In this document: one piece after another, positions 8,711 through 63,630 of the stretch
How the letters are laid out: each line of letters opens with the position of its first letter
How positions within the stretch are numbered: the stretch's first letter is position 1
Assembly: GCF_030684315.1 (NCBI RefSeq)
Contig: NC_081388.1
Coordinates: forward strand, 8,602,093-8,666,092
Length of the DNA stretch: 64,000 nt
Direction: 5' to 3'
DNA from: Stegostoma tigrinum
Taxonomy: Eukaryota
The notes under the pieces: generated by a model
The model's input: the letters and a program-made list of their open reading frames with translations, nothing else
What the model was told of the DNA's origin: nothing
The model's database searches: none
Position numbers and translations under genes: made by a program

Positions 8711-8719
8711 CATGCTGAC

Positions 8720-16687: not shown

Positions 16688-16709
16688 GATCACAAACACT
16701 TCAACCATC

Positions 16710-16915
16710 CCCTACCCAGCTCCTTTTATACACACAACCTGCACTCACCTGACACCAATCAGACCAGAAGCAGCAACAATGAACCAATGATCCAGCCCCA
16801 ATCTCTGCAAATTCCACCAATGTCTACATCCATTGGCTTCTTACCAGAAGGGCCCATTTCATTTGGACCAATAGGAATGGCTGGGAGTTGCCATGCTGTC
16901 ACCTGACTGCATTCA
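16710..16915 (-). promoter_or_regulatory. ZP3 copy 2 proximal promoter
   Basis: TATAAAA at 16730-16724 followed by the same CCAAT/E-box block as copy 1. Confidence 0.65.
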
Positions 16916-35237: not shown

Positions 35238-35259
35238 GATGCCAAACAACTCAACCATC

Positions 35260-35470
35260 ACTTCCAGCCCCCACCCAGCTCCTTTGATACACACAACCTG
35301 CACTCACCTGACACCAATCAGACCAGAAGCAGCAACAATGAACCAATGATCCAGCCCCAATCTCTGCAAATTCCACCAAAGTCTAAATCCATTGGCTTCT
35401 TACCAGAAGGGCCCATTTCATTTGGACCAATAGGAATGGCTGGGAGTTGCCATGCTGTCACCTGACTGCA
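35260..35470 (-). promoter_or_regulatory. ZP3 copy 4 proximal promoter with variant TATA (TATCAAA)
   Basis: The plus strand reads cctttgatac at 35281-35290 versus ccttttatac in the other copies; the rest of the block is conserved. Confidence 0.6.
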
Positions 35471-40328: not shown

Positions 40329-40489
40329 GAGAGATAATAAAATCTGAGGCTGGATGAACACAGCAGGCCAAGCAGCATCTCAGGAGCACAAAATCCTCTC
40401 TGGTGAAGGGTCTAGGCCCGAAACGTCAGCTTTTGTACTCCTGAGATGCTGCTTGGCCTGCTGCGTTCATCCAGCCTCACATTTTATTA
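40329..40489. mobile_element. 161 bp Penelope-derived hairpin insertion with a 13 bp target-site duplication
   Basis: 59 bp inverted arms at 40335-40393 and 40431-40489. TSD cccatagtaatga (40316-40328) and cccatcgtaatga (40490-40502). The empty site is in unit 2 at ~12663-12675. Confidence 0.85.
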
Positions 40490-41240
40490 CCCATCGTAAT
40501 GAAGTGTTTAAACAGCTAAAGCTTACAAAGGCGCTTGGGCAGTAACTCTCAGATGTGTGTTGTGGCCATCTTTATAATTAGGTCATCAGCAACTGGGTAT
40601 AGTTTTTGGAGAGAAGGGATGACACTTGATTATTGTTCACCTTCAGGCCCCAGTTGTTAATGAGGGCCTGAAGTGTGGAGGAGTCTTAAGGCCTGTACAT
40701 TCCAAAACAGGGCCCCCAGCCTGCATTCACATTCAGCTGCAATTTGTACAGTAGATGCTTGACTCAGTTGAGTCAGGACTATCTGACCTCAGACCAAAAC
40801 CCCAGGGAAGAAAGCCCAGTGGAGAAAAAAAACAACTAATATTTACAAGACAAGGTGGACATTGGACTGAGATTCTTTCTGAAGAATACAGCAGAAGACA
40901 GAGCAATGTGTCTCAGGCACCAGTTTGATTCACCCCATAGAATTCTCACATTATGGAAGCAGTGCAATTGCCCCATTGAGTCCACACAGCTACCCCAACC
41001 CCTCTGAAGAGGGTCCTGGCCATGCCCTTTAACCCTACATCCCCCATATATAACCCACAGGGCCTACATATCCCTGTACTCTGGTGCACTTTCCCCATGG
41101 CCAATTCATGGTGACTGGCACCCCTTTGGGTGGAGGGGAAAAGATACCTGAGCACTCCCAGTCACAGCGATAACATGCAACCACCAGCAGGTGGAATGAA
41201 CTCAGTCTCCTGGTGTTGCGTTGCAACAGTCTAAGCCACT

Positions 41241-41400
41241 GAACCAATGATCCAGCCCCAATCTCTGCAAATTCCACCAATGTCTACATCCATTGGCTTC
41301 TTACCAGGAGGGCCCATTTCATTTGGACCAATAGGAATGGCGGGGAGTTGCCATGCTGTCACCTGACTGCATTCAGTTCCACAGGTTCTCATGGTGATGG
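41241..41400 (-). promoter_or_regulatory. Orphan upstream half of a ZP3 promoter (TATA and gene deleted)
   Basis: Matches 16781-16940 (CCAAT boxes and distal E-box) but is joined directly to 3' flank sequence at 41240. Confidence 0.7.
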
Positions 41401-42309
41401 CCCCCTGAGTACAATAGAGTCACAGAGTCTTCTGGCTGAGAGACAGGTCCTTTGGCCCGGAATGATGCACGCTGACCAAAATTTCTATCCGTGCTAAAAT
41501 CATTTCCTTGCACCAGGACCCTGTCCTTCTAAACCTTTCCCATCCGTGTATTTGTCCCAATGCCTATTAAATGTTGTTAATGTAGCCCCTCAAGCACTTC
41601 TGTTGGCCCCTTACTCCATGTGTGTACCACTCTCAGGGTGACCAGGTTTCCATGTATTTACAAGACTCTCATGAGCTTATACACTTCGAGGAGATCCCCT
41701 CTCAGTCTCCTACACTCTAAAGAAATTAGCCTGAGCTTGTCCAACCTCTACCTCTATCTCAGGGCAACTGTTTCATCTTTTCCAATTTAATAGAATTGTT
41801 CCTGTAACAAGGTGACCAAATCTGAACACAATACTGCAAGAGGAGATACAGAGCCTGTTTTGTGGAGGATCTGCACTTGACTTGCAACAAACTACTTGCC
41901 ACAAACTGGACGAGAAGCACCTCATGTCCTGCCTCAGGAGCTGACAGCCCAATGGCCTAAACGTGGATTTTACCAGTTTTAAAATCTCCCCTTGCCCGGC
42001 CTCATCTCATGATCAACCCTACCTCTCATCCCTACCTCCTTGACCTGATACAACCTGTCCACCTTCTCTCCCACCTATCTGCGCCTCCCACCTCACTGAC
42101 TAATCCCCACCACCCCTACCTGCACTCACCTGTCACCATCCCATCTACCTTCCCCAGTTCAACCCCTCCTCTTTCTATTAACTTCTGAGCTTCCTTCCCC
42201 TTCTCCAATTTCTAAAGAAGAGTCCCGACCTGAAACATCAACTTTCCTGCTCCCCACATGCTGCCTGGACTGCTGTGTTCATCCACACTTTGTTAGGCTG
42301 ATACGCCAA

Positions 42310-43530
42310 ATGTGTCGTCCTCATCTGCAACACAAATTCCCACCTTCGATACTCAATGCACACATAGACGAAAGCCAGTTTGTCAAACGCCATCTTCACT
42401 GCCCTGTCTAGCCGTCACTCAGCTGTCAGAGAATTGTGCGCCTGAACTCCAATGTCCCTCTGTTCCACTACACTCCTTACAGCCGTACCGTTCACCCTGA
42501 AATTCCCACCTTGATTTCGCTTTCCACAATGCAACACCTCACACTTATCTAGAATCAAATCCATTTGCCATTTATCGGCCCACTTCCACAGCTGATCAAC
42601 ATCATGTTGCAATTTCTGAAAACTTTCCTCACTATCCACAATACTATCTATTTTAGTGTCATCTGCCAACTGACTAATCATGCCTTGTACACCCTCATCT
42701 ACAGCATTGATATAGATAACAAACAGCAATAGGCCCAGCACTGACCCCTGAGGCACACCACGAGTCACAGACCTCCACTCCGACAAGCATCCTTTCACTA
42801 TTACTCTCTGCTTCCACCCATCAAGCCAATTATGTATCTCGTTTACTGGATACTATTCGAGCTAACTTTCCAGAGCTGCCTAAAACATGGAAACTTATCA
42901 AAGGCCTTACTGAAATCCATCGGGACTACGCCTCTTGCGCTGCCATCACACTTCCTGAACATTTCATCAAAGAACTCTGACAACTTTGTTTGGCATCATC
43001 TCTAATGCACAAAGCCGCACTGACTACTCCTAATCAAACCCTGTCTTTTCATATGCATGCATATCTTATCCCTCAGAATCTTCTCAAGTAACATGCCTAT
43101 CACACATGCTATGCTTACAAGCCTATAATTCCCAGATTTCTCTTCTCAGCACTTCCAATACTTCCAACACCTCCTCCACTGTGACATGGACTGTCACCAA
43201 GATATCACCACTGACTTCCCAAAGTCGCCATGTCTTCATGTCATTATCCACAGCTCACAAAGAGGCAAACTATTCATTGAGAACCTCATTCATCTCCGGC
43301 AGTTCCACACATGCATGTCCACTCTGGCCATTCAGAGTTCCTATTCTCTCTCCAGTTATTTTTATGGCTTTAATATACGGAAAGAATCTATTTGGATTCG
43401 CCCTGACATTTTCAGTCAAAGCTGACTCATGCCCCTCTTGAGACATCCTGATTTCCTTCTTCAGTTAAATCCTGTAACCCCTCTCTACCTCCATGGCTTC
43501 CCTTGATCCCAGTTGCCTGTACCTGATCAA
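42310..43530 (-). mobile_element. CR1-like LINE RT fragment, left palindrome arm
   Basis: ORF 42415-42798 with GVPQGSVLG and ADDTK motifs. Confidence 0.9.
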
Positions 43531-45657
43531 TCCCACCTTCTTTGTTCTGGTAACAGCCTTTTTCATCCAGGGTTCCCTACTCCTGCTTCCATGCTGTATA
43601 ACTCCATGACTCTGACAGTCTGTGAAAGAGCAAAGTCAATAACAATTTTTCAGTTAAAAACTGACAGAGCCACTGATGCAGTGAATCAGAATCAAAAACA
43701 GAAATTTCTGGAAAAGCTCACCAGAGCTGGCAGCATCTGTGGAGAGAAATCACAGTTACTGTTTCGGGTAGAGAGACCCTTCCTCTGAACAATTCTTCAA
43801 CAGTGACCAAGGATATGAACATATTGTGTTCATCAATAGGACAAACATTGAGGGCAAATTAAGATGTTCAGAACAAGCTACTAGTTAACATAGAGAGCGG
43901 ACTTACTTCAGTACAGATGTGTCGGGGTTGGGGGAGTGGGTAAGTGTAAAGATTAGTTCACACTGATTGAAAGTGACCTGCACATGTTTCCATAGGAACC
44001 GCAACTAAATAAAGATGAAGGCACAGAACATGATTGTGAAGAGATTACCTGGTCCAAAAACCCAGAATCCTACACATTGTAAGAGAAAATATCGGCTTCA
44101 CCAGAGGAGTCCATGATGAAAATTCCACGAGATGAACGTTCCTGAGATGATGTTATGGGGCAACTACCTTAGTTATCAGGAAAGAGTTCAGCTGCAAAAG
44201 AAATTCAGGAGATGAAGAGTTCTCCAGCTAACGTGATAGAGTAGCGCCCCTGGGGTAGCACGAGTTTCAACCTCAGCTCAAAACACCAGCATTTCAAGCA
44301 GTCTGCTGATGTTGAGCTTTAGAATAGGATCAAGGCCAATAGCCCTCAAGTCAAAGACCCACCAATCTGCCAATTCTGAAGAGAATGAATTCAGGGAGAA
44401 TTACAAAACCTCCAGGATGCCATGAAGTTGTAAAATCGGAGACTTGAGGAGATCTGGGTTTGTGGCATGTAAAGCTTGGTGGAGCTCATATGTAGTTTGC
44501 TGAGTGGTTTGTATATTGTGTACAGTTCACTCACTGAGAAACAGAACTGGAACTAACCCCAACCGCCCCAGCAAACCGAGGCATGTAAATAACAAATGGG
44601 ACAGAACACTGACCCTTCACCAGAGGCGCACTGACAATGTTACTTCACAGGGTGACTAAACGTTTGCGACCAAGCCCATCGGCTCAACGAGCATGTCTGC
44701 GTCTTCAGTGAGGTGAACTTTGAAGTGTGTCGCCTGTGGTAATGTTGGGAGAAGCAGCAGGAAATTTGAGCACAGCAAACTCCCACAAGTTGCTCACCTT
44801 TGGCGATTCTCACCGAGGGGAAAATGAGTGATCAGAATGCCAGCAATGATTTGACATGCAGTGCCTGGCGTATACTTAATTTACAAACAATTATGTGAGT
44901 GCAATGGTGGTGGATTTAACTTTGTATGCAACAAAACTGAGAGGTCCAACAGTGCTTTTCCAGCAGATTCCTCAAAAAAAACTGGAGAGGCACTTCAGCA
45001 TGGAGTCCGCTCGAAGAAAATCATACCCATTGGCCTGAGTTTTCAGGGAAATGATAAACACATTAATATTTCCACATTCCCAAAACCAAGTGCTCACAGA
45101 GATGTACAGAACACGTCTCTTTTTCCTCCAGACTTAAATTATTGAATAACATTGTCAGAAGAAGACAAGCTCAATTGTTTTGTTGTTTTCCTATTTGTGA
45201 TTGAATGCAGCAGGTATTTCTGATGGCCTCGTGGTATTGTAGCTGGACTGTTAATCCAGAGACCCAGGTAATGTTCTGGGCACCCAGGTTTGAATACCAC
45301 CATGGCAGATGGTGGAATTTGAATTCAATAAAAATATTTTTGCTGAGGCATGGAAGGCATAGGAACCCTTCATTGTCCCATCTTCAACAAACCTCAGTGT
45401 TAGTGAGGGACTGAAGGCTGAATGAGTCTTAATGTCAACACATTCCAAAACAGAGCCCCCAGCCTGTGTTCACGTTCAGATGGGACTCGTACAGTAGATG
45501 CTTGAGTCAGGACTATCTGCCTCATGACTGGTTCAAAACTCCCAGAAGGAGAAAGCCGGTTAAAAAACAAACTGCAATATTTAGAAGTGAGGGTGGGCAT
45601 TTGTATTGGAGATTCTTTCTGAAGTATACAAGACTAGTCAGAGAAGTGTGTCTCATT

Positions 45658-45978
45658 TAGATTAGATTAGATTCCCTACAGAGTGGAAACAGGCCCTTCG
45701 GCCCAACAAGTCCACACCGCCCCTTGAAGCACCTCACCCAGACCCATCCCCCTATAACCCACACATCCCTGAACACTACGGGCAATTTAGCATGGCCAAT
45801 CCACCTAGCCTGCACATCTTTGGACTGTAGGAGGAAACCGGAGCACCCGGAGAAAACCCAAGCAGACACAGGGAGAATGTACAAACTCCACACAGACAGT
45901 TAGCCGAGGCTGGGATCGAACCCGGGTCCCTGGTGCTGTGAGGCTGCAGTGCTAACCACTGAGCCATTGTGCCGCCCC
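45658..45978 (-). mobile_element. tRNA-derived SINE (HE1/V-SINE-like), mirror copy in the left arm
   Basis: Reverse complement of 55930-56250. Confidence 0.85.
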
Positions 45979-45999
45979 ATTTACCAGTTTGACTTATCC

Positions 46000-46330
46000 C
46001 ATAGAATTCCCACAGTGCAGAAGTTTCCCAATTGGCCCATCGAGCCCACACGGCTGTCCCAAACCCTCTGAAGAGCAGTCCACCCAGACCCATCCCCGCA
46101 CCCTCTCCCTGTAACCCTAGATCCCCCATGGGTAACCCACCTTGTCTGCACATCTCTGCACACTGTGGGGCAATTTCCCATGGCCAATTCACCCTGACCG
46201 GCACACCTTTTGGCTGTGGGAGGAAGCCGGAGCACCCGGAGGAAACCCACGCAGACACAGGGATAATGTGCAAATTCCGCACGGACAGCCGCCCGAGGCT
46301 GGAATCAAATCCGTGTGCTCGGTGCAGCAA
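46000..46330 (-). mobile_element. Older V-SINE-like copy; mirrored at ~55578-55908, with decayed equivalents at ~4030-4350 in each unit
   Basis: Contains the V-domain-like ggaagccggagcacccggaggaaacccacgcagacacagg. Confidence 0.7.
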
Positions 46331-46849
46331 GGCAGCAGTGTTTGTTTTTTGGTTTCAGACCTATCTCCTAATCCAGGGCTGCCTGATGACTGATAATTTA
46401 GGCCTGCAACTGACTTTCAGTTATTCAGGCTTACTTGCCCCCACACTTAGGCCCAGAATGTTTGTTTGTGGGCAATAAATGTTGGTCCAACCAGCAATGC
46501 CCACATCCCACCAAGGAGTGACAAATCAGGCCCACATAGAGCCGATGCCTAACCTCTAATCTCTGATTCAGGCCCAGGCCACAGCTTCTGATTTAGACTG
46601 AACTCTACTTAGAACTCACACTGACTCGAGGCTAAAAACTGACTCCTGACCAATTCAAGCCAGGATGAATTTCACAGATTGAGCTGCTGTCACTGAATTT
46701 TTGTCCAAGTGTGGATGGATATGTATGTCAAGTCCTTGGCATTGTATGTATACTGCTGTTAGAATATAAATATAAATACAAATCTGTTCTTTTATCTGAG
46801 GAAAAATCTAAAGCTGGCTTCAAGATTATAATTTAAGATTATGAAGGGC

Positions 46850-47106
46850 ACACGGTGGGAACATCACCTCCTGAAAGCTTCCCTCTGACCGTCCTGACTT
46901 AGAATTATATCACTGTTATTTCATTGTCACTGGGTCAAAATGCTGGAATTTCCTCTCTAACAGTATTGTGGGCCAACACACTGCACATTGACTGCAGCAG
47001 TTCAAGAGGGCAGTTCACTGCCAATTTCCTGAAACCAACTCAGGGTGGGCAATAAATGTTGGTCCAACCAGCAATGCCCACATCCCACCAAGGAGTGACA
47101 AATCAG
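46850..47106 (+). mobile_element. L2-like LINE/SINE 3' end; mirrored at ~54802-55058
   Basis: gggtcaaaatgctggaat...gcagcagttcaagagggcag...gggcaataaatgttgg...gcccacatccc. Confidence 0.5.
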
Positions 47107-47189
47107 AACATATGTTAGTCATTTCTTCAGAGCAGATCCATAATCCTCCCAATCAAATCATTTCTGGAGTGCTTCCATTATTTTATCTT

Positions 47190-47735
47190 ATGGAGTCATA
47201 GTCATCCAGCACAGAAACAGACCCTACAGCCCAACCAGTTCATGCCGACTATCATCCCAAACTAAGCCAGTCCCACCAGCCTGCTCCTGGCCCATATCCC
47301 TCTAAACCTTTCCCTATTCATGTACTTATCCAAATGTCTTTTAAATGTTATAATTGTGCCACATCCACACCTTCCTCTGGAAGTTCATCCCACACGAGAA
47401 TCTATTTAAAAGATTTGCACCTCATGTCATTTTTAAATGAGTCTCTTCTCACCTTAACAATGTATTCCCTAGTTTTAAAATCCCCCATATGATCTTCCAT
47501 TAACCCCATCTATGGCCCTCGTGATTTTATAAACCTCTATAAGGTCAACTTTCAACTTCCTATGCTCCAGCGAGAAAATGTCCCTGAGTCTATCCAGCCT
47601 CCCCTTATAGCTCGAAACTTTCATTCCTGGCAACATCCTGGTAAATCTCTTCTGAATCCTCTCCAGTTTAATAATATCTTTCCTGTGACAAAGAGACCAG
47701 GACTGGACAGAGTATTCCAGAAGAGGCCTCTCTTC
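47190..47735 (-). mobile_element. CR1-like LINE 3' end (ORF2 C-terminus and 3' UTR); mirrored at ~54175-54718
   Basis: RPLLEYSVQSWS...KLERIQKRFTRMLPG...DLIEVYKI motif, ending in a short tatgactc-type tail. Confidence 0.85.
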
Positions 47736-48647
47736 AGAGAAATCTTTTAGTGTTAAGAGGAAATTTTGAATTGTATTACTGGTTTTAAAAAGAGCTCCTT
47801 TCTTCAAGGATAACACAGTGTGGATGTTGGGGGATTCTGGGGAAACGTCAGCTTTCCTGCTCCTCTGATGCTGCCTGGCCTGTTGTGTTCTTCCAGCTCT
47901 ACACTGTGTTATCTCTGGCTCTACCATCGGCAGTCCTTACTATCTCCTTTCTTGGAAGCTTTTCTTTCACTGATCAGGACATTTTGAAAGAATACCAGTG
48001 TAATGTGAATATAGTCTTCCTGTATAATATGGAAAGAGAGTGCAGATTGTTTGATAAATGGACACTATTTGGTAGGTGTGGTTGCACGTTCCAGTTAGAA
48101 GACACTTGGCAGTTCAGTGCCATGGGTTGTTAACATGTTATACCAAGCAGGTTGGCATTGATTGGTGTTGTTTGAGAAATGGCTATCATCTATTCTGTAG
48201 AGTTGAAGTAGGATGTGCTGCACCAAAGGTTGTCTCCTGTAAGGTTCTATGATTCGCTATGAATACCTGTTCTTTTTGATCAGGTCCCTGAGTATTAATA
48301 TGCAGAGGCTCTAGTCTATGCAGGTGAGCCACACTATGACAATATTAAATTGGTTGTCAGCATAATTCTTACCATACTCAGGATTGTTTAACAAATGCTG
48401 CCAATTCAAGGAATCACACCTAGAGTTGGGCATTGAATTTTGAGATTTGTAGGCAACAGGCAGTCCCTTGTCTGTCTAGCTCATGTTAGCCAAAAAAAAA
48501 TGTTTGAGCAACAGTTGAATGTAGGTGGTTTATGCAGTAAGAAAGCAACAGTAATATAATACAAGTATTGTTTGTCATTAACAAGGTGTGACTGTCAAGC
48601 TTGAGTTGAGTATGTGATATATGAATTTCAGTGCCAGTGTGATGCCA

Positions 48648-48790
48648 CAAAAACTGACGTTGCTGGAAAGCTCAGCAAGCCTGGCAGCATCTGTGAAGGA
48701 AAAGAAACGCAGTTAACATTTAGGGTCTAGTGGCTGAGGATGGATGCTGCCAGACCTGCTGAGCTTTTCCAGAGACTTTGCTTTTGCTCC
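48648..48790. repeat. Older Penelope-type hairpin remnant; mirrored at ~53120-53260
   Basis: ctggaaagctcagcaagcctggcagcatc pairs with gatgctgccagacctgctgagcttttccag. Related to the sequence at 640-740. Confidence 0.6.
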
Positions 48791-50139
48791 TGATTCACAG
48801 CACCCGCAGTTCTCTCAGTTTTTACTCGGTGTGATGCCAGTTATGGGAGCCCTATAGTCCAAAGACTGGCAGGTCATGCCAAATGGCATGTCTCTTTTCT
48901 GGCTGTTGGCAGTAAGGAAGGTGCTTTCTGCCCTCATCCCACTTCTCCTGTCTGCCTCTCACCCTTTCCTGATTCTCCATCTCCTCAAATCCTTTCTTTA
49001 ATACCCAGACGTGTTGTCACATGCAACTGAGTGACTTCCCCAGCGCCAAAAGCATGGTGGCTTTTTGCTGTTGTAACCTGCCAGTGTGGCCAGTCCAAGC
49101 TCAGCCCATTATGGCTAATGCAATCCATTGAAAGTGAGGGGGAGGTAGGGAGAGAGGGAAGGGGCTCAATCGAAATGGAGTTGGAGGGGGAAATAAAGCA
49201 TTGTATGCCCCATGGTGCCCACCTCTCTCGAAAGAGATTGAAAGCATTGAGGGTCACTGTATTCATCTTCTCTAAGGGCTGCTAAGCATGAATGTAACCA
49301 CGGAAGATGGGCAGGCAGTTGGCAGACTTGACCCCGTCCACAGTTCGCAGTTTATAGCCAGCTTGCAGACCCATGAGGAAATCCCTCTGCTCTGCCCACA
49401 CTCCTCCACACCAGGTGCCCAAACGTCAGTAGCGCAGGGCTGAAAAAAATCCTTTTATTTTCATCTTGCCCTTTAATACAGTGAAGTCGCCCTACACGTT
49501 GAGATATTGACCCAGAGTATCTCTGGCCGGGACGTCTGTGTGCACACAGCCCCTGAAGCTGATTGCTTCTTATTGCTCAGTAAGGGTCTACAACTCCTCA
49601 TGGATAGTAACACACTTTATTTATCTGCAAACAGTGAGTAATTTCTCTTATACAGCCCTCTAGTTCAGTGTCTGAGACCTTTCACTTCACACCTTAGTTT
49701 TAGACCAGTGTTTTCTCTCTTACTGAGTCCCATGATCAGGTACAACGTAGTTTACAGCATTACAGATGTGATATGGTGTTAAAGGAGCCCAGCAGAGTGC
49801 ACAACCATAAGAACCAGGAGCAGGAGTGGGCCATCTGGCCCCTCGAGCCTGCTCAGCCATTCAATAAGATCATGGCTGATCTTTTCACGGACTCAGCTCC
49901 ACTTACCCTCCCGCTCACCATGACGCTTAATTCCTTTACTGTTCAAAAATCTACCTACCTTCTCCTTAAAAATATTCAATGAGGAAGCCTCAACTGCTTC
50001 ACTAGGCAAGAAATTCCACAGATTCACACAAGCCTTTGGGTGAAGAAGAAACCAGCAGTTATACAGATTGAGGGGCATAAGCACTCAAGAAGGAGATCTC
50101 AATGATGTACTGAAACAAGTATGGAGATCGGACCGGCCC

Positions 50140-50790
50140 CATACAGCTACTGGCCTGCTGGTAGGAGACAGAGGGTGGGGTTGGTAGATGTTAGATTTTT
50201 GGCCTGGAGGCTTGTGGCCAGTATTGTTCGACAGGCAACAGTGCTGGGTCCACTGTTCTTTGTCATTTATGTAAATGATTTAGGTAAGTGTACAGAAAGC
50301 TTGGTTAGTAAATTAACAGATGACACCAAAATTGGTAGTGTAGAGGGCAATGAGGAAGGTTATCTAAGATTGCAAAGAGATCTTGATCAATTGGTTCAAT
50401 GGACTGAGGAGCTGCAGATGCTGTTTAATTTGGATAAATATACGGTATTGCATTTTGGTTAAACAAACAAGGCTTATACAATTAATGGTAGGGCTTTAGT
50501 TACTGTTGTAGAACAGAGCGACCCAGGGTTCAGGGACATAATTCTTTGAAATTTGCATCACATATAGATAGGGTAGTTAAGAAGGTGTTTGGCACGCTCG
50601 CCTTCATTGCTCAGCTCTTTGAGTATAGGATTTGGGGCGTTGTGTTGAGGTTGTACAGAGCGTTGGTGAAGTCTCTTCTGGAGTACTGTGTGCAGTTCTA
50701 GATGCCCTGCTATAAGAAGGAACTTAACTAAATTACACAGGGTCCAGAAAATGTTTACTAGGATGCTTCTGGGAGTGGAGGGTTTGAGAT
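50140..50790 (+). mobile_element. CR1-like LINE RT fragment spanning the inner palindrome junction; partial mirror at 51310-51770
   Basis: VLGPLFFVIYVNDL...TDDTKIG...LQRDLDQL motifs, continuing into the spacer through ctggagtactgtgtgcagttc (LEYCVQF). Confidence 0.85.
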
Positions 50791-50819
50791 ATTTATTATA
50801 GGCTTGGAAATTTAAGATT

Positions 50820-51309
50820 ACAAAGTGTAGAGCTGGAGGAACGTAACAGATCAGGCAGCATCAGGGGAACAGGAAAGTCAGGACCCTTCTTCAGAAATGG
50901 GGAGGGTAAGGGAGCTGGGAAATAAACAGAGAGAGGACGGATGGGGCTGCCGAAGGGAGGTGGGATGGTGGCAGATGAGTGCAGGTAGGCCCTGGTGGGG
51001 ATTGGTCAGTGAGGTGGTGGAGCATTTAGAAGGGAGAGAAGATGGACAGGTTGTGCCAGGTCAATGAGGCGGGGATGAGACAGTGGGTTGGCCATGAGGT
51101 GAGGCTGGTGGTGGGGAGATTTCAAAACTGGTAAATTCTATGTTCAGGTCATCGGGCTGAAGGCTCTCGAGGTGGAATATGAGGTGCTGCTCCTCCAGTT
51201 TTCGGGTGGTGTCACTGTGAGACTGGAGGAGGCCCAGGATGGACATGTCACCTAGGGAGTGGGAGGGGGAGTAGAAATGGTTTGCGACTGGTGGGTGTTG
51301 CTGTTTGTT
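50820..51309 (-). mobile_element. Penelope-like element 3' fragment (C-terminus of the GIY-YIG endonuclease region and terminal repeat) in the palindrome spacer
   Basis: ORF 51061-51318 reads PVANHFYSPSHS...ILGLL...RKLEEQHLIFHLESLQPDDLNIEF, which resembles Penelope/Poseidon ORF C-termini. It is followed by a C-rich UTR and a partial ctgaagaagggtc motif. Confidence 0.75.
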
Positions 51310-54300
51310 GCGTGCCAAACACCTTCTTAACTACCCTATCTATATGTGATGCAAATTTCAAAGAATTATGTCCCTGAACCCTGGGTCGCTCTGTTCTACA
51401 ACAGTAACTAAAGCCCTACCATTAATTGTATAAGCCTTGTTTGTTTAACCAAAATGCAATACCGTATATTTATCCAAATTAAACAGCATCTGCAGCTCCT
51501 CAGTCCATTGAACCAATTGATCAAGATCTCTTTGCAATCTTAGATAACCTTCCTCATTGCCCTCTACACTACCAATTTTGGTGTCATCTGTTAATTTACT
51601 AACCAAGCTTTCTGTACACTTACCTAAATCATTTACATAAATGACAAAGAACAGTGGACCCAGCACTGTTGCCTGTCGAACAATACTGGCCACAAGCCTC
51701 CAGGCCAAAAATCTAACATCTACCAACCCCACCCTCTGTCTCCTACCAGCAGGCCAGTAGCTGTATGGGGCCGGTCCGATCTCCATACTTGTTTCAGTAC
51801 ATCATTGAGATCTCCTTCTTGAGTGCTTATGCCCCTCAATCTGTATAACTGCTGGTTTCTTCTTCACCCAAAGGCTTGTGTGAATCTGTGGAATTTCTTG
51901 CCTAGTGAAGCAGTTGAGGCTTCCTCATTGAATATTTTTAAGGAGAAGGTAGGTAGATTTTTGAACAGTAAAGGAATTAAGCGTCATGGTGAGCGGGAGG
52001 GTAAGTGGAGCTGAGTCCGTGAAAAGATCAGCCATGATCTTATTGAATGGCTGAGCAGGCTCGAGGGGCCAGATGGCCCACTCCTGCTCCTGGTTCTTAT
52101 GGTTGTGCACTCTGCTGGGCTCCTTTAACACCATATCACATCTGTAATGCTGTAAACTACGTTGTACCTGATCATGGGACTCAGTAAGAGAGAAAACACT
52201 GGTCTAAAACTAAGGTGTGAAGTGAAAGGTCTCAGACACTGAACTAGAGGGCTGTATAAGAGAAATTACTCACTGTTTGCAGATAAATAAAGTGTGTTAC
52301 TATCCATGAGGAGTTGTAGACCCTTACTGAGCAATAAGAAGCAATCAGCTTCAGGGGCTGTGTGCACACAGACGTCCCGGCCAGAGATACTCTGGGTCAA
52401 TATCTCAACGTGTAGGGCGACTTCACTGTATTAAAGGGCAAGATGAAAATAAAAGGATTTTTTTCAGCCCTGCGCTACTGACGTTTGGGCACCTGGTGTG
52501 GAGGAGTGTGGGCAGAGCAGAGGGATTTCCTCATGGGTCTGCAAGCTGGCTATAAACTGCGAACTGTGGACGGGGTCAAGTCTGCCAACTGCCTGCCCAT
52601 CTTCCGTGGTTACATTCATGCTTAGCAGCCCTTAGAGAAGATGAATACAGTGACCCTCAATGCTTTCAATCTCTTTCGAGAGAGGTGGGCACCATGGGGC
52701 ATACAATGCTTTATTTCCCCCTCCAACTCCATTTCGATTGAGCCCCTTCCCTCTCTCCCTACCTCCCCCTCACTTTCAATGGATTGCATTAGCCATAATG
52801 GGCTGAGCTTGGACTGGCCACACTGGCAGGTTACAACAGCAAAAAGCCACCATGCTTTTGGCGCTGGGGAAGTCACTCAGTTGCATGTGACAACACGTCT
52901 GGGTATTAAAGAAAGGATTTGAGGAGATGGAGAATCAGGAAAGGGTGAGAGGCAGACAGGAGAAGTGGGATGAGGGCAGAAAGCACCTTCCTTACTGCCA
53001 ACAGCCAGAAAAGAGACATGCCATTTGGCATGACCTGCCAGTCTTTGGACTATAGGGCTCCCATAACTGGCATCACACCGAGTAAAAACTGAGAGAACTG
53101 CGGGTGCTGTGAATCAGGAGCAAAAGCAAAGTCTCTGGAAAAGCTCAGCAGGTCTGGCAGCATCCATCCTCAGCCACTAGACCCTAAATGTTAACTGCGT
53201 TTCTTTTCCTTCACAGATGCTGCCAGGCTTGCTGAGCTTTCCAGCAACGTCAGTTTTTGTGGCATCACACTGGCACTGAAATTCATATATCACATACTCA
53301 ACTCAAGCTTGACAGTCACACCTTGTTAATGACAAACAATACTTGTATTATATTACTGTTGCTTTCTTACTGCATAAACCACCTACATTCAACTTGTTGC
53401 TCAAACATTTTTTTTTGGCTAACATGAGCTAGACAGACAAGGGACTGCCTGTTGCCTACAAATCTCAAAATTCAATGCCCAACTCTAGGTGTGATTCCTT
53501 GAATTGGCAGCATTTGTTAAACAATCCTGAGTATGGTAAGAATTATGCTGACAACCAATTTAATATTGTCATAGTGTGGCTCACCTGCATAGACTAGAGC
53601 CTCTGCATATTAATACTCAGGGACCTGATCAAAAAGAACAGGTATTCATAGCGAATCATAGAACCTTACAGGAGACAACCTTTGGTGCAGCACATCCTAC
53701 TTCAACTCTACAGAATAGATGATAGCCATTTCTCAAACAACACCAATCAATGCCAACCTGCTTGGTATAACATGTTAACAACCCATGGCACTGAACTGCC
53801 AAGTGTCTTCTAACTGGAACGTGCAACCACACCTACCAAATAGTGTCCATTTATCAAACAATCTGCACTCTCTTTCCATATTATACAGGAAGACTATATT
53901 CACATTACACTGGTATTCTTTCAAAATGTCCTGATCAGTGAAAGAAAAGCTTCCAAGAAAGGAGATAGTAAGGACTGCCGATGGTAGAGCCAGAGATAAC
54001 ACAGTGTAGAGCTGGAAGAACACAACAGGCCAGGCAGCATCAGAGGAGCAGGAAAGCTGACGTTTCCCCAGAATCCCCCAACATCCACACTGTGTTATCC
54101 TTGAAGAAAGGAGCTCTTTTTAAAACCAGTAATACAATTCAAAATTTCCTCTTAACACTAAAAGATTTCTCTGAAGAGAGGCCTCTTCTGGAATACTCTG
54201 TCCAGTCCTGGTCTCTTTGTCACAGGAAAGATATTATTAAACTGGAGAGGATTCAGAAGAGATTTACCAGGATGTTGCCAGGAATGAAAGTTTCGAGCTA

Positions 54301-55929
54301 TAAGGGGAGGCTGGATAGACTCAGGGACATTTTCTCGCTGGAGCATAGGAAGTTGAAAGTTGACCTTATAGAGGTTTATAAAATCACGAGGGCCATAGAT
54401 GGGGTTAATGGAAGATCATATGGGGGATTTTAAAACTAGGGAATACATTGTTAAGGTGAGAAGAGACTCATTTAAAAATGACATGAGGTGCAAATCTTTT
54501 AAATAGATTCTCGTGTGGGATGAACTTCCAGAGGAAGGTGTGGATGTGGCACAATTATAACATTTAAAAGACATTTGGATAAGTACATGAATAGGGAAAG
54601 GTTTAGAGGGATATGGGCCAGGAGCAGGCTGGTGGGACTGGCTTAGTTTGGGATGATAGTCGGCATGAACTGGTTGGGCTGTAGGGTCTGTTTCTGTGCT
54701 GGATGACTATGACTCCATAAGATAAAATAATGGAAGCACTCCAGAAATGATTTGATTGGGAGGATTATGGATCTGCTCTGAAGAAATGACTAACATATGT
54801 TCTGATTTGTCACTCCTTGGTGGGATGTGGGCATTGCTGGTTGGACCAACATTTATTGCCCACCCTGAGTTGGTTTCAGGAAATTGGCAGTGAACTGCCC
54901 TCTTGAACTGCTGCAGTCAATGTGCAGTGTGTTGGCCCACAATACTGTTAGAGAGGAAATTCCAGCAGTTTGACCCAGTGACAATGAAATAACAGTGATA
55001 TAATTCTAAGTCAGGACGGTCAGAGGGAAGCTTTCAGGAGGTGATGTTCCCACCGTGTGCCCTTCATAATCTTAAATTATAATCTTGAAGCCAGCTTTAG
55101 ATTTTTCCTCAGATAAAAGAACAGATTTGTATTTATATTTATATTCTAACAGCAGTATACATACAATGCCAAGGACTTGACATACATATCCATCCACACT
55201 TGGACAAAAATTCAGTGACAGCAGCTCAATCTGTGAAATTCATCCTGGCTTGAATTGGTCAGGAGTCAGTTTTTAGCCTCGAGTCAGTGTGAGTTCTAAG
55301 TAGAGTTCAGTCTAAATCAGAAGCTGTGGCCTGGGCCTGAATCAGAGATTAGAGGTTAGGCATCGGCTCTATGTGGGCCTGATTTGTCACTCCTTGGTGG
55401 GATGTGGGCATTGCTGGTTGGACCAACATTTATTGCCCACAAACAAACATTCTGGGCCTAAGTGTGGGGGCAAGTAAGCCTGAATAACTGAAAGTCAGTT
55501 GCAGGCCTAAATTATCAGTCATCAGGCAGCCCTGGATTAGGAGATAGGTCTGAAACCAAAAAACAAACACTGCTGCCTTGCTGCACCGAGCACACGGATT
55601 TGATTCCAGCCTCGGGCGGCTGTCCGTGCGGAATTTGCACATTATCCCTGTGTCTGCGTGGGTTTCCTCCGGGTGCTCCGGCTTCCTCCCACAGCCAAAA
55701 GGTGTGCCGGTCAGGGTGAATTGGCCATGGGAAATTGCCCCACAGTGTGCAGAGATGTGCAGACAAGGTGGGTTACCCATGGGGGATCTAGGGTTACAGG
55801 GAGAGGGTGCGGGGATGGGTCTGGGTGGACTGCTCTTCAGAGGGTTTGGGACAGCCGTGTGGGCTCGATGGGCCAATTGGGAAACTTCTGCACTGTGGGA
55901 ATTCTATGGGATAAGTCAAACTGGTAAAT

Positions 55930-56250
55930 GGGGCGGCACAATGGCTCAGTGGTTAGCACTGCAGCCTCACAGCACCAGGGACCCGGGTTCGATCCCAGCC
56001 TCGGCTAACTGTCTGTGTGGAGTTTGTACATTCTCCCTGTGTCTGCTTGGGTTTTCTCCGGGTGCTCCGGTTTCCTCCTACAGTCCAAAGATGTGCAGGC
56101 TAGGTGGATTGGCCATGCTAAATTGCCCGTAGTGTTCAGGGATGTGTGGGTTATAGGGGGATGGGTCTGGGTGAGGTGCTTCAAGGGGCGGTGTGGACTT
56201 GTTGGGCCGAAGGGCCTGTTTCCACTCTGTAGGGAATCTAATCTAATCTA
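55930..56250 (+). mobile_element. tRNA-derived SINE (HE1/V-SINE-like), full length
   Basis: A box TGGCTCAGTGG, B box GGTTCGATCCC, V-domain-like gtgtggagtttgtacattctccctgtgtctgc...ggtttcctcc, (ATCTA)n tail and probable TSD taaatg. Confidence 0.85.
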
Positions 56251-58379
56251 AATGAGACACACTTCTCTGACTAGTCTTGTATACTTCAGAAAGAATCTCC
56301 AATACAAATGCCCACCCTCACTTCTAAATATTGCAGTTTGTTTTTTAACCGGCTTTCTCCTTCTGGGAGTTTTGAACCAGTCATGAGGCAGATAGTCCTG
56401 ACTCAAGCATCTACTGTACGAGTCCCATCTGAACGTGAACACAGGCTGGGGGCTCTGTTTTGGAATGTGTTGACATTAAGACTCATTCAGCCTTCAGTCC
56501 CTCACTAACACTGAGGTTTGTTGAAGATGGGACAATGAAGGGTTCCTATGCCTTCCATGCCTCAGCAAAAATATTTTTATTGAATTCAAATTCCACCATC
56601 TGCCATGGTGGTATTCAAACCTGGGTGCCCAGAACATTACCTGGGTCTCTGGATTAACAGTCCAGCTACAATACCACGAGGCCATCAGAAATACCTGCTG
56701 CATTCAATCACAAATAGGAAAACAACAAAACAATTGAGCTTGTCTTCTTCTGACAATGTTATTCAATAATTTAAGTCTGGAGGAAAAAGAGACGTGTTCT
56801 GTACATCTCTGTGAGCACTTGGTTTTGGGAATGTGGAAATATTAATGTGTTTATCATTTCCCTGAAAACTCAGGCCAATGGGTATGATTTTCTTCGAGCG
56901 GACTCCATGCTGAAGTGCCTCTCCAGTTTTTTTTGAGGAATCTGCTGGAAAAGCACTGTTGGACCTCTCAGTTTTGTTGCATACAAAGTTAAATCCACCA
57001 CCATTGCACTCACATAATTGTTTGTAAATTAAGTATACGCCAGGCACTGCATGTCAAATCATTGCTGGCATTCTGATCACTCATTTTCCCCTCGGTGAGA
57101 ATCGCCAAAGGTGAGCAACTTGTGGGAGTTTGCTGTGCTCAAATTTCCTGCTGCTTCTCCCAACATTACCACAGGCGACACACTTCAAAGTTCACCTCAC
57201 TGAAGACGCAGACATGCTCGTTGAGCCGATGGGCTTGGTCGCAAACGTTTAGTCACCCTGTGAAGTAACATTGTCAGTGCGCCTCTGGTGAAGGGTCAGT
57301 GTTCTGTCCCATTTGTTATTTACATGCCTCGGTTTGCTGGGGCGGTTGGGGTTAGTTCCAGTTCTGTTTCTCAGTGAGTGAACTGTACACAATATACAAA
57401 CCACTCAGCAAACTACATATGAGCTCCACCAAGCTTTACATGCCACAAACCCAGATCTCCTCAAGTCTCCGATTTTACAACTTCATGGCATCCTGGAGGT
57501 TTTGTAATTCTCCCTGAATTCATTCTCTTCAGAATTGGCAGATTGGTGGGTCTTTGACTTGAGGGCTATTGGCCTTGATCCTATTCTAAAGCTCAACATC
57601 AGCAGACTGCTTGAAATGCTGGTGTTTTGAGCTGAGGTTGAAACTCGTGCTACCCCAGGGGCGCTACTCTATCACGTTAGCTGGAGAACTCTTCATCTCC
57701 TGAATTTCTTTTGCAGCTGAACTCTTTCCTGATAACTAAGGTAGTTGCCCCATAACATCATCTCAGGAGCGTTCATCTCGTGGAATTTTCATCATGGACT
57801 CCTCTGGTGAAGCCGATATTTTCTCTTACAATGTGTAGGATTCTGGGTTTTTGGACCAGGTAATCTCTTCACAATCATGTTCTGTGCCTTCATCTTTATT
57901 TAGTTGCGGTTCCTATGGAAACATGTGCAGGTCACTTTCAATCAGTGTGAACTAATCTTTACACTTACCCACTCCCCCAACCCCGACACATCTGTACTGA
58001 AGTAAGTCCGCTCTCTATGTTAACTAGTAGCTTGTTCTGAACATCTTAATTTGCCCTCAATGTTTGTCCTATTGATGAACACAATATGTTCATATCCTTG
58101 GTCACTGTTGAAGAATTGTTCAGAGGAAGGGTCTCTCTACCCGAAACAGTAACTGTGATTTCTCTCCACAGATGCTGCCAGCTCTGGTGAGCTTTTCCAG
58201 AAATTTCTGTTTTTGATTCTGATTCACTGCATCAGTGGCTCTGTCAGTTTTTAACTGAAAAATTGTTATTGACTTTGCTCTTTCACAGACTGTCAGAGTC
58301 ATGGAGTTATACAGCATGGAAGCAGGAGTAGGGAACCCTGGATGAAAAAGGCTGTTACCAGAACAAAGAAGGTGGGATT

Positions 58380-59600
58380 GATCAGGTACAGGCAACTGGG
58401 ATCAAGGGAAGCCATGGAGGTAGAGAGGGGTTACAGGATTTAACTGAAGAAGGAAATCAGGATGTCTCAAGAGGGGCATGAGTCAGCTTTGACTGAAAAT
58501 GTCAGGGCGAATCCAAATAGATTCTTTCCGTATATTAAAGCCATAAAAATAACTGGAGAGAGAATAGGAACTCTGAATGGCCAGAGTGGACATGCATGTG
58601 TGGAACTGCCGGAGATGAATGAGGTTCTCAATGAATAGTTTGCCTCTTTGTGAGCTGTGGATAATGACATGAAGACATGGCGACTTTGGGAAGTCAGTGG
58701 TGATATCTTGGTGACAGTCCATGTCACAGTGGAGGAGGTGTTGGAAGTATTGGAAGTGCTGAGAAGAGAAATCTGGGAATTATAGGCTTGTAAGCATAGC
58801 ATGTGTGATAGGCATGTTACTTGAGAAGATTCTGAGGGATAAGATATGCATGCATATGAAAAGACAGGGTTTGATTAGGAGTAGTCAGTGCGGCTTTGTG
58901 CATTAGAGATGATGCCAAACAAAGTTGTCAGAGTTCTTTGATGAAATGTTCAGGAAGTGTGATGGCAGCACAGGAGGCGTCGTCCGTATGGATTTCAGTG
59001 AGGCCTTTGATAAGTTTCCATGTTTTAGGCAGCTCTGGAAGGTTAGTTCGAATAGAATCTAGTAAACGAGATACATAATTGGCTTGATGGGTGGAAGCAG
59101 AGAGTAATAGTGAAAGGATGCTTGTCGGAGTGGAGGTCTGTGACTCGTGGTGTGCCTCAGGGGTCAGTGCTGGGCCTATTGCTGTTTGTTATCTATATCA
59201 ATGCTGTAGATGAGGGTGTACAAGGCATGATTAGTCAGTTGGCAGATGACACTAAAATAGATAGTATTGTGGATAGTGAGGAAAGTTTTCAGAAATTGCA
59301 ACATGATGTTGATCAGCTGTGGAAGTGGGCCGATAAATGGCAAATGGATTTGATTCTAGATAAGTGTGAGGTGTTGCATTGTGGAAAGCGAAATCAAGGT
59401 GGGAATTTCAGGGTGAACGGTACGGCTGTAAGGAGTGTAGCGGAACAGAGGGACATTGGAGTTCAGGTGCACAATTCTCTGACAGCTGAGTGACGGCTAG
59501 ACAGGGCAGTGAAGGTGGGGTTTGACAAACTGGCTTTCGTCTATGTGTGCATTGAGTATCGAAGGTGGGAAGTTGTGTTGCAGATGAGGACGACACATTT
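58380..59600 (+). mobile_element. CR1-like LINE RT fragment, right palindrome arm
   Basis: ORF 59110-59493, mirror of 42415-42798. Confidence 0.9.
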
Positions 59601-60534
59601 GGCGTATCAGCCTAACAAAGTGTGGATGAACACAGCAGGCCAGGCAGCATGTGGGGAGCAGGAAAGTTGATGTTTCAGGTCGGGACTCTTCTTCAGAAAT
59701 TGGAGAAGGGGAAGGAAGCTCAGAAGTTAATAGAAAGACGAGGGGTTGAACTGGGGAAGGTAGATGGGATGGTGACAGGTGAGTGCAGGTAGGGGTGGTG
59801 GGGATTAGTCAGTGAGGTGGGAGGTGCAGATAGGTGGGAGAGAAGGTGGACAGGTTGTATCAGGTCAAGGAGGTAGGGATGAGAGGTAGGGTTGATCATG
59901 AGATGAGGCCGGGCAAGGGGAGATTTTAAAACTGGTAAAATCCACGTTTAGGCCATTGGGCTGTCAGCTCCTGAGGCAGGACATGAGGTGCTTCTCGTCC
60001 AGTTTGTGGCAAGTAGTTTGTTGCAAGTCAAGTGCAGATCCTCCACAAAACAGGCTCTGTATCTTCTCTTGCAGTATTGTGTTCAGATTTGGTCACCTTG
60101 TTACAGGAACAATTCTATTAAATTGGAAAAGATGAAACAGTTGCCCTGAGATAGAGGTAGAGGTTGGACAAGCTCAGGCTAATTTCTTTAGAGTGTAGGA
60201 GACTGAGAGGGGATCTCCTCGAAGTGTATAAGCTCATGAGAGTCTTGTAAATACATGGAAACCTGGTCACCCTGAGAGTGGTACACACATGGAGTAAGGG
60301 GCCAACAGAAGTGCTTGAGGGGCTACATTAACAACATTTAATAGGCATTGGGACAAATACACGGATGGGAAAGGTTTAGAAGGACAGGGTCCTGGTGCAA
60401 GGAAATGATTTTAGCACGGATAGAAATTTTGGTCAGCGTGCATCATTCCGGGCCAAAGGACCTGTCTCTCAGCCAGAAGACTCTGTGACTCTATTGTACT
60501 CAGGGGGCCATCACCATGAGAACCTGTGGAACTG

Positions 60535-60750
60535 AATGCAGTCAGGTGACAGCATGGCAACTCCCCGCCATTCCTATTGGTCCAAATGAAATGGGCCCTC
60601 CTGGTAAGAAGCCAATGGATGTAGACATTGGTGGAATTTGCAGAGATTGGGGCTGGATCATTGGTTCATTGTTGCTGCTTCTGGTCTGATTGGTGTCAGG
60701 TGAGTGCAGGTTGTGTGTATAAAAGGAGCTGGGTGGGGGCTGGAGGGGAT
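60535..60750 (+). promoter_or_regulatory. Promoter of the inverted ZP3 pseudogene
   Basis: CAGGTG at 60543-60548, ATTGG boxes, and TATAAAA at 60718-60724. Confidence 0.6.
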
Positions 60751-60769
60751 GGTTGAAGTGTTTGTGATC

Positions 60770-63630
60770 ATGGGGGATTTTGTAGTGAGGGGTTTGTTCC
60801 CTGTGTTGTTAGTTAGTTAGTTGGTTGGTGCTGTTTGTTTCTTGGAAACTCAGCAACTGAACCTGAGGTATCCATGGAGAAGAGTGAGAGCCACCCCTGT
60901 ACCTGAGTGAGTTTCTCCTCATGGGGGTCCCATTGGTTCCAGTTTCAGAATGTCTGAGGGTGGGAGTGTGTCCCCACTGCAGACTGTGATGGTGCAGTGT
61001 GGAGAGCAGAAGCTGCTGGTCAGGGCCCAGTTGGATTTATTTGGAACCAGGCACCTAATTAATGCTGCTGACCTGACCCTGGGAACAGTAGGCTGTCAGC
61101 CAACCAGGGTCTACCCTGAGAACCACACTGTCCTCTTTGACTATGGCCTGCATGAGTGTGGCAGCAGATTGCAGGTAATGGGAGTCCTCCATAGTTGCGG
61201 GAAGCTTGGTCTATACAGTGTTCCTTGCTGTAATGCTGGCTCCAATGCTGTGGTTATTGGGGTGTACTTTCTCTTGTTCTCAAGCTGAGATTGTCTCTTC
61301 TAGATTTGACTGTGGCTGAAGTGGTTCTGTGGGCCCCCAAACCCCTCTGTTGTCCCTATGGCATTGAGATTATTTCTAGTTCTCCTGGATATGATTAGCT
61401 TTCAATGTTTGAGTCTTGTTTCTCCTTAGTCAGCTCTACTGTCATTCTCATCCCTTGAGGGTGACACTGCTAAAAACATTACCATTGAGCTGCCTTGTTC
61501 TTGAAGGGCTCCAATTTCCCACTTTCCTTGCCTTTGGAACAACTGGGCTTGTGGGATATGTGCTCTGTTTCTGTATTATTAGATTATCCCCTGGTCTGTT
61601 TACTGAAACTGACTTTATTGAATCACTTTGCTGAATAGTTTAGCCTTGTCCTCGATAACCTCAAACATTAGGTTTGCTGATGACTGAGGAAACCAAAATG
61701 TCTGAGAGAATCGGGGTCACGTTACTGTTCCCTCAGTGATTTCTATTGCTAGTTTCTACAAAAACCATCCATCTGTTTCAACAACTGTGTATTTCCACTG
61801 TAAATGCATTCCCTATCTGATCATTGCTGATCAATTGATTGATGCCCTACCTTGTCAAATTCATCCAAAATGATGAACCTCTGAGCTATGATGTATTGCC
61901 TGTAAAACTGGTGTCACTGCTTGTGAGCAAACAAGAGGCTGGCACTGAGCCTGTCAACTCCCTACGTAACTGTGGGAATGGGATGATGTCCTTGTGTTGC
62001 ATAGAACCTTCATTTCAAATTGGTTCCCCATTCCTTCATCTGTTGTCTTTCAGATGACTGGAGACTTCTTGATCTACACCACCCACCTGACCCACATCCC
62101 AAACTATCCTGGGTCTGTCATTGTGAGAACCAATGGAGCTGTCATTCCCATTGTGTCGTTATTTGAGGTGAGCCTTTGCTAGATTGTCAACATCATCTGT
62201 AGCTGTCACCTGACACTAGCTTAAAATGGCTGCACTGTCTCTCCCCAGGACAGGCAATGTGAGCAGTGACCCCATCAATCCCACAGGATCCCATTCAGCT
62301 CCACCAGGTCTAGAGAAGGGCACTTGTCATTCTCCCTGCGTCTAATGAATGGTATGTGAGGGCTGGCTAGGGAGGGATCGCCTGGTGTCACTCACTGGGA
62401 GCTGCACCTACTATCTGTAACCCTTGTCCTCTTGTACTTCAGGTGACTGGCTTAAAGAGCACACTTCCACTGTCTACTCCCTGGGAGACCTCATTCACAT
62501 TGAGGCGTCTGTTTCAATGGACAACCACTTGCCCCTGAAGCTGTACATTGACCGCTGTGTAGCTACACTGAGCCCAGGCAAGGACTCCAGCCCCAGATAC
62601 AGCATCATTGACTACAATGGGTAAGGAGCTCTCTGCTTTCTCCAGCTGCTTCCATCTCAATGGCTTCACTCCGTTCACTTCATGGCCCTTTGTTCACCTG
62701 CAGTTGCCTCGTAGACAGCAAAGCTGAGGACTCCTTTTCAACCTTTGTGTTGCCGAGAGACCAGCGGGAGCCAGACAAGCTCAGGTTTGACCTGGATGCC
62801 TTCCGCTTCTATGGAGATGAACAATCCTTGGTAAGAGGAAGCTGCTGATTAGTCACTCCCACCCAGTGGGGAGAAGCCAAACTGACTTGTGCTGCATGTG
62901 TCCCTCAGATATTCATCACCTGTCACCTGAAAGTTGCTGCAGTAGATCAGGGAGATTCCAGGAACAAAGCTTGTACTTTCCAGAAGCTGCACAAGATGTG
63001 AATGGTTTCTGACCTACCCTCTGCCCCCACTCACCGTCCCTTAGTGATGTTGTTGGTGAGGTGATGCCCCACGTGGTTCATGAGCTTTTTCTCCTGTTTA
63101 GCTGGACCCCACTAGAGGAATCAAGCAGTGACATTTGTGCCTGTTGCCATGTGGGGAACTGTGGTAGCACACGGGACATCATCCTTCCCTTCAGAGGAAG
63201 GAGAGACCTTGGAGCTGAAGCTGGTAAGTCACTGAACCACGAGATGTTCGGGCTATACACCCCTTCCTGAACCTAACCGTACTGCTCTCTCTCCTGCAGA
63301 GTGAAGCTGGATTGAAGTGGGAGGGTGAGTCCTCAGTTGGCCCCCTGCTCATTCTGGATCCTGAGCTGACCAGCCTGGCGACTGAGCCCCTGACTGAGGA
63401 TGAGCAAAGGATGCAGGAGATGTCTCCAGGCGGTGAGTTGCCTGACTGCTAGTTTGCCTCTTTGTCCCAGTTTCCATCAGTAACCATTGGTTTCTCCTTG
63501 CTGTGTAGGTGTGCAGTCTGAGCTGGTTGTGATGCTGTCCCTGACAGTGACAGCTGTCTCCCTGATCTCTGCTTCGTTGATGGCCTTGATCCTGTACAGG
63601 AAGCACCAGCGAACTCCACTCAACTATTGA
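60770..63630 (+). pseudogene. zp3: ZP3-like pseudogene, type B, inverted orientation
   Basis: ATG at 60770; in-frame TAG at 60818-60820 inside a TTAG/TTGG expansion; in-frame TGA at 60908-60910; 2-nt deletion in exon 2 (~62155); 1-nt deletion in exon 3 (~62285); 2-nt deletion at the start of exon 8 (~63300); terminal TGA 63628-63630; AATAAA 63642-63647. Confidence 0.92.

Follow-up and report, generated by a model that had tools for sequence, protein, structure and literature searches.

The ZP3-like array and its turning point

The window analysed here is a stretch of 64,000 bp from the zebra shark, Stegostoma tigrinum [RefSeq assembly GCF_030684315.1, contig NC_081388.1, positions 8,602,093 to 8,666,092, forward strand]. 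It contains a tandem array of ZP3-like genes and a palindrome located at the point where this array reverses, with the genes on both sides pointing away from the centre. BLAST comparison of the window with itself gave one inverted match of 9,362 columns at 99.74% identity, and a match of 9.4 kb at such identity is far beyond a chance origin. A previous reading of the sequence alone (the sequence-only reading) had placed the palindrome at 41240-60668, with arms of ~9.36 kb and a 712 bp spacer, and BLAST and a base-level alignment agree with these limits to the base. The palindrome belongs to a known class of structures and is probably real. Its parts are as follows.

41240-50597, + strand: left arm, 9,358 bp (BLAST self-comparison and base-level alignment)
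51310-60668, - strand: right arm, 9,359 bp, reverse complement of the left arm
50598-51309: spacer, 712 bp, with no near-identical copy within the window
41240-44458: array-derived part of the left arm, promoter-side and intergenic DNA of a ZP3-like unit
44459-50597: non-array flank within the left arm, old repeats
42939-50597 (+), mirrored at 51310-58969: near-identical inner arm, 2 substitutions and 1 indel in 7,659 bp
41843-42938 (+), mirrored at 58970-60065: divergent patch, 20 substitutions, 10 of them within 42848-42938
51309/51310 (51309-51312): new junction, putative GC or GCG microhomology, from the loose-end consensus of paralogous copies at 51291

The array and the genes on either side of the centre are listed next.

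1-40328: tandem array, unit ~9.1 kb, three-unit higher-order repeat
4742-7577, - strand: copy A, intact nine-exon ZP3-like gene, 463 aa
13832-16687, - strand: copy B, intact ZP3-like gene, 461 aa
23314-26121, - strand: copy C, 1 nt loss in exon 1
32402-35237, - strand: copy A2, intact ZP3-like gene, 464 aa
36612-44458, - strand: unit B', innermost left unit, gene body deleted
41240/41241: join of the left-arm deletion, 3,359 bp gone relative to unit B
44497-46225: patches 69-78% like the array intergenic DNA, just past the homogenised edge at 44458
60718-63630, + strand: copy R, B-type ZP3-like pseudogene, TATA box at 60718 and ATG at 60770

Every left-side unit carries one nine-exon gene on the minus strand, and homology to the array extends beyond the complete units and stops at 44458 (tandem array 1-44458). 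The higher-order copies at 1-12675 and 27662-40328 are 98.35% identical. Between 1-12000 and 27662-39661 there are 6 differences per 2 kb at the left end, climbing to 33-44 per 2 kb, and homogenisation of the array is therefore uneven. Copy B includes ZP-N and ZP-C Pfam matches, with PF23344 and PF00100 above the cut-off in both of the exons scanned; all three PDB matches are to ZP3, the top one being 3NK3 'Zona pellucida 3'. The name ZP3-like is attached to 70 of the 71 homologues, all 70 from sharks and rays. By eye, the copy B translation has a hydrophobic N-terminus, an RGRR motif and a hydrophobic stretch near the C-terminus, which we take to be the signal peptide, basic cleavage site and C-terminal hydrophobic stretch of the ZP3 family. 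The listing of open reading frames is uninformative for a spliced gene of this kind.

Three window copies have counterparts among the RefSeq proteins of the zebra shark, on a record of 25.36 Mb. Copy A agrees with XP_059495973.1 at 469 of 470 residues and copy A2 with XP_059495975.1 at 470 of 471, and the model XP_059495974.1 carries the shifted frame of copy C straight through. Where exon 1 is skipped or disrupted, RefSeq models of the array often begin with an odd N-terminus built of intergenic sequence, so that annotated gene counts exceed the number of intact copies.

The innermost gene is dead or missing on each side. In unit B' a deletion spanning B coordinates 13422-16780, with 1 bp common to both sides at the join, has removed the TATA box and all nine exons. 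This loss from the left arm is the reason that the symmetry stops at 41240/60668, as had been proposed. Copy R, outside the symmetric part, has two in-frame stops in exon 1 and small losses of 2 nt in exon 2, 1 nt in exon 3 and 2 nt at the exon 8 acceptor, and differs from B by 100 substitutions in 3,308 bp (~3%). The near-identical arms are thus without an intact gene. The patches at 44497-46225 are possibly an old unhomogenised remnant, perhaps of a terminal unit, or old repeats shared at the array edge. An insertion of ~160 bp at 40329-40489 is present in unit B' only; its inverted ends are long and its target duplication, of ~14 bp, is near-perfect. The summed contig depth there is in the millions, which identifies a very high-copy element.

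Base 64000, the last of the window, aligns to B coordinate 13461, and symmetry should therefore resume near 64040, the ~40 nt past the window end that the sequence-only reading had estimated. That reading had also suggested that the whole array may be mirrored to the right. RefSeq accessions ending in 973, 974 and 975 track the window order A, C, A2, and those ending in 976 and 978-982 type as C, A, C, B, A, C, with 977 absent from the listing. Assuming that accession order equals position, the latter apparently lie to the right of the window. Going right in the window B is between A and C, and in this second set it is between C and A, so that the order of the right-side genes is reversed, which is what an inverted array predicts. 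Order and orientation of the proposed mirror would therefore stand, but a near-identical mirror does not. Over a 283-residue core A and A2 differ by 2 residues; the two right A-types have the same core, which is 6 residues away from that of A and of A2, B and the right B-type differ by 7, and the first right C-type is 4 residues from C and 2 from a C-type left of the window. Because the right A-types are identical yet 6 residues from their left partners, the arrays look, from these predicted proteins, to be homogenised within each side and apart between sides (~2% of residues).

Differences between the arms and the central junction

In total the arms differ by 22 substitutions and one 1 nt indel, an identity of 99.76% in the base-level alignment, which gave 23 substitutions before 41239, beyond the arm boundary, was dropped. 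The inner arms differ only at 44139/57769, at 46940/54968 and by an indel (A versus AA, 48512/48513 against 53395), and identity in the centre is 99.96%. The sequence-only reading had found exactly these three inner differences and did not mention the 20 others in 41843-42938. When the left arm is split at 44458, the edge of array homology and a boundary chosen by homology and not by the differences, the array-derived part holds 21 substitutions in 3,219 bp versus 1 in 6,139 bp of non-array arm (Fisher P = 2.6e-9).

Identity steps sharply at 42939/58969, being near-perfect inside and patchy outside. The outer arm is a patchwork with 56 sites common to both arms against unit B/C, and identical runs of ~600 and ~380 bp adjoin 10 substitutions in 91 bp, a clustering reached in none of 20,000 shuffles. 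In the divergent patch, 41843-42938, the unit B allele sits now on the left arm and now on the right, and across the 21 in-arm sites the unit B/C allele is on the right at 13 and on the left at 8. From 41843 to 42467 the left arm, the right arm and unit B are roughly equidistant. One of the two inner-arm substitutions agrees with a paralogue.

The sequence-only reading had described the duplication as very recent or actively homogenised, and this is the right pair of options. Since the outer parts of the arms, which derive from the array, are not alike, the evidence tends to favour an older structure that was homogenised recently, and the balance tips slightly towards a real palindrome formed by an older inverted duplication, the centre of which was recently made near-identical by arm-to-arm copying. 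Alternatively, a young single fold-back (template-switch) event may have made the whole right side. Its age would then be given by the inner arms, and later divergence of the outer arms and arrays would be due solely to exchange with other tandem units and to the 3.4 kb deletion. The near confinement of the differences to array-derived DNA agrees with this, as does the 13 to 8 distribution of unit B/C alleles, which is what imports from paralogues would give. However, the right A-types carry alleles found in no left A-type among those listed (6 and 9 residues away), and an unseen donor would therefore have to replace the right array in the time in which the centre gained 2 substitutions. The similar distances between the two arms and unit B in 41843-42467 also argue against a young origin, which is considered rather unlikely.

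The alignment of 50205-50647 to a paralogous long interspersed nuclear element (LINE) at 17868-18317 (66%) crosses 50597/50598, and the left arm therefore runs unbroken into the spacer. The spacer carries on the CR1-like LINE of the left arm and then enters a second repeat that is cut at 51309. Paralogues of this repeat go on with GCG in the consensus from sequencing run X11 or GC in that from run X14, and the inverted arm starts with GCG. A one-sided junction with 2-3 bp of microhomology would have the form of a fold-back, and speaks for the older palindrome with a copied centre as well as for a young template-switch product.

The inner arms are non-coding and the description of them as decayed transposon DNA was borne out, with old repeats and one weak reverse-transcriptase remnant found. 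This is an RVT_1 match below the cut-off at 50106-50459, in one of four frames scanned; the other three gave no Pfam match. Scans of the window detected no Rfam match and no tRNA, and Tandem Repeats Finder gave one trivial 12 bp row only. An exact direct repeat of ~60 bp, at ~46468-46529 and ~47045-47106 (~577 bp apart), is present in both arms. As the arms are upstream of both arrays, which are head-to-head, selection might preserve the identity of the centre if it serves the two sides jointly in regulation or pairing, such as by bidirectional control of both ZP3 arrays. This is very improbable, given that the nearest gene is dead on either side, that the inner arms are composed of old repeats lacking Rfam matches, and that an enhancer needs no base-perfect identity across 7.7 kb. 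Copying between the arms of an older palindrome is preferred as the explanation of the identical centre.

Arm copy number in independent read data

Four zebra shark DNA runs, representing two samples in one study, contain 76-81% of the sampled words of 46400-51600. Contigs of zebra shark runs X11, X12 and X14, and of run X1 (organism A, share 0.09), were aligned to 40330-51360 at 90% likeness. The output is dominated by repeat contigs, in the hundreds of thousands, and the figures given here are for the best-supported pieces listed. For arm depth, array-derived pieces were excluded and 6 of 8 (X11), 7 of 8 (X12) and 6 of 8 (X14) of the pieces listed were used. The control was 8 of the 15 joint rows listed, which pool contigs from unrelated repeat-bearing loci; the rows dropped were six that are plainly high-copy and one that is X1-only. 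Run X1 itself contributed a single long piece, at 49371-49725 and differing from the window at 32 letters, and none on the ancestral junction.

Length-weighted mean arm contig depth was 11.3 in X11, 40.9 in X12 and 9.8 in X14, and the control median per-contig depth was 6.8, 23.6 and 5.2, respectively. The ratios are 1.67, 1.73 and 1.88 (1.49, 1.74 and 1.63 when pooled), so that the arms are 1.5-1.9x deeper than unrelated loci in all three runs. The halving of coverage over the arms that had been named beforehand as the sign of an artefact was not seen, and the depth ratio supports two arm copies in living animals. X11 and X14 hold 1,809 million and 1,696 million distinct words versus at least 2,111 million in X12, and have about one third of the contig number of X12 in most control rows listed. 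These lower counts would suit a single-copy depth near 5 and not the arm depth of 10-11. The array-to-arm depth ratio was rejected as a test, as it scales alike for a real mirror and for a join of haplotypes.

Two arm copies are expected both of an older palindrome and of a young fold-back. They are not expected if the assembly has joined two haplotypes of one array end head-to-head via a chimeric fold-back read, with the arms being alleles and the deletion heterozygous. The same fold-back junction form can result from a chimeric long read, and a spacer that continues one arm with the new junction opposite is also what such a chimera should produce. The 3 inner differences in 7,659 bp are no greater than those between the window and X12 (2 in 3,683 bp over the arm contigs listed). 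In addition to the depth ratios and the contig and word counts of X11 and X14, a false join is opposed by the right-side proteins, as allelic arrays would need to differ by ~2% of residues. A further point against a false join is position 48291, where contigs of all three zebra shark runs have G and both window arms have A; if present on both arms of one chromosome, this G would show arm-to-arm conversion.

A number of points weigh against a real and older palindrome. The microhomology at 51309/51310 is only 2-3 bp, with the pre-junction sequence borrowed from paralogues, and microhomology of at least 2 bp was reached in 134 of 1,000 simulated junctions in the accessible text of PMC3907307, so that taken by itself it is weak evidence. 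The annotation of the right-side genes may derive from the same assembly, and their position is known by accession order only. No contig or read over the spacer or crossing 51309/51310 is among the pieces listed in any run, which is uninformative either way, and the orientation and junction consequently depend on the assembly. The depth control is rough, as error or heterozygous contigs could lower it, and the ratios stay below 2. In X12, alleles common to both arms at 43226 and 43374 have a depth of ~20 where 40 is expected. A second contig over 48291 has a depth of 37.4 in X12 and 7.0 in X11, near the arm depth, and if it comes from one unrelated locus would put single-copy depth at the level of the arms. 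The missing junction piece and the depths at 43226, 43374 and 48291 all fit an assembly join. On balance, the duplication is likely to be real, and an assembly artefact is judged unlikely.

Origin of the palindrome and comparison with known systems

According to the favoured reading, of an older palindrome with a recently copied centre, an inverted duplication would have placed a second array head-to-head with the first, a layout that is observed in the window and is presumed beyond it. Each array may then have been homogenised along its own length, which would explain the difference of ~2% of residues between genes of the two sides. Much later, arm-to-arm copying would have made the gene-free centre near-identical. 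This may have occurred by repeated gene conversion, or as one long tract, copied from a start in the array DNA common to both sides near 42939/58969, through the left flank and as far as 51309/51310, where a switch at the microhomology would have left 712 bp as the spacer. The palindrome is most likely a by-product of the array turnover that raises ZP3 copy number, and any function of the palindrome itself is only conjectural.

Mutation rates of 1-2e-8 per generation have been used for bamboo and whale shark (accessible text of PMC9826928). With 2 substitutions in 7,659 bp, these would loosely date the inner arms to ~6,000-13,000 generations. A lower pedigree mutation rate in sharks would make the inner arms far older. 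It is possible, though doubtful, that this is a long-lived palindrome on a shark autosome with a spacer of <1 kb, in which copying resets the gene-free centre, the arm genes diverge by tandem homogenisation and the innermost genes die. If so, the pattern is the reverse of that of mammalian X/Y palindromes, and inverted and tandem homogenisation could be measured side by side at one locus in a slowly mutating lineage.

The papers compared below are cited for their accessible parts. Large palindromes have been defined by arms of ~10 kb or more with >99% identity (10.1101/800185), and arm-to-arm gene conversion has been described for primate and mouse X/Y palindromes (PMC8600007, PMC3723533, 10.1101/800185). 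In primates, rearrangements of these palindromes gather at the centre and small spacers are the least stable (PMC8327919). Like them, the zebra shark palindrome has many-kb arms >99% identical around a spacer that is single-copy in the window and is associated with a gamete-related gene family, although its uninterrupted arm is 9.36 kb at 99.76% identity, the extension past 64040 being outside the window. It differs in that the locus is probably autosomal, that the genes are, by family name, egg-coat and not testis genes, that the near-identical part has no intact gene while the genes have diverged, and that conversion is deduced from one sequence and not across individuals. Shark X chromosomes are 16.4-28.8 Mb across species (10.1101/2025.02.26.637739) and about 17 Mb in one assembly (PMC10620051), and the 25.36 Mb zebra shark record falls inside this range. 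An autosomal location is suggested by the epaulette shark, as the homologues there sit on records of 43.1 and 33.3 Mb.

Human fold-back duplications have spacers of 766-70,466 bp and inverted microhomology of 2-8 bp in 13 junctions (PMC3907307). The zebra shark structure resembles them in its non-duplicated spacer between a direct and an inverted copy and in its putative inverted microhomology of 2-3 bp, and at 712 bp its spacer is just below the smallest one sequenced there. The human cases are de novo patient rearrangements beside terminal deletions, translocations or rings, whereas the shark case appears to be interstitial and common to two samples, with the second junction outside the window. 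Mouse chromosome 12 SD12A1 (PMC13688818) is autosomal, with direct repeats within an arm and inverted repeats between arms. However, it extends over megabases, its gap is 530 kb, its two arms are 93% identical and, in the text accessible, they give no sign of inter-arm conversion, compared with a 712 bp gap and a 99.96% identical centre in the zebra shark.

In literature searches, mostly without subscription papers, neither a ZP3 array in sharks nor this palindrome was found described, and a search on the fold-back artefact gave no paper. Two zebra shark genome papers do not mention 'zona' or 'palindrom', and the accessible text of PMC8455134 refers to the ZP domain in general terms only. Whether the structure is real or an artefact, no new mechanism is implied. 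If it is real, a class known chiefly from work on the sex chromosomes of mammals gains a cartilaginous-fish, probably autosomal, egg-gene case, with a boundary at 42939/58969 that could be used to follow conversion tracts and spacer flipping in population long reads, and it illustrates how the copy number of a ZP3 cluster, here at least a dozen, may have doubled. If the assembly has made a false join, some of the ZP3-like genes annotated in the species are a spurious duplication, which matters for shark egg-coat copy number.

Tandem expansion of this gene family is described in catfish (PMC13704971), with 20 or more tandem ZP3-like copies, pseudogenes and genes on both strands; its accessible text mentions no palindrome or inversion, and the three-unit higher-order repeat is a feature of the shark array. 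In many shark species a single record carries several RefSeq models named ZP3-like. On the 25.36 Mb zebra shark record a second ZP3-like cluster [XP_059495874-891] consists of two alternating, often identical proteins that are further from the genes in the window. A 1.4 kb contig in a record labelled Salmonella enterica has 70% identity to shark ZP3-like exon 1 over 98% of the exon, and is likely a mislabelled or contaminating sequence.

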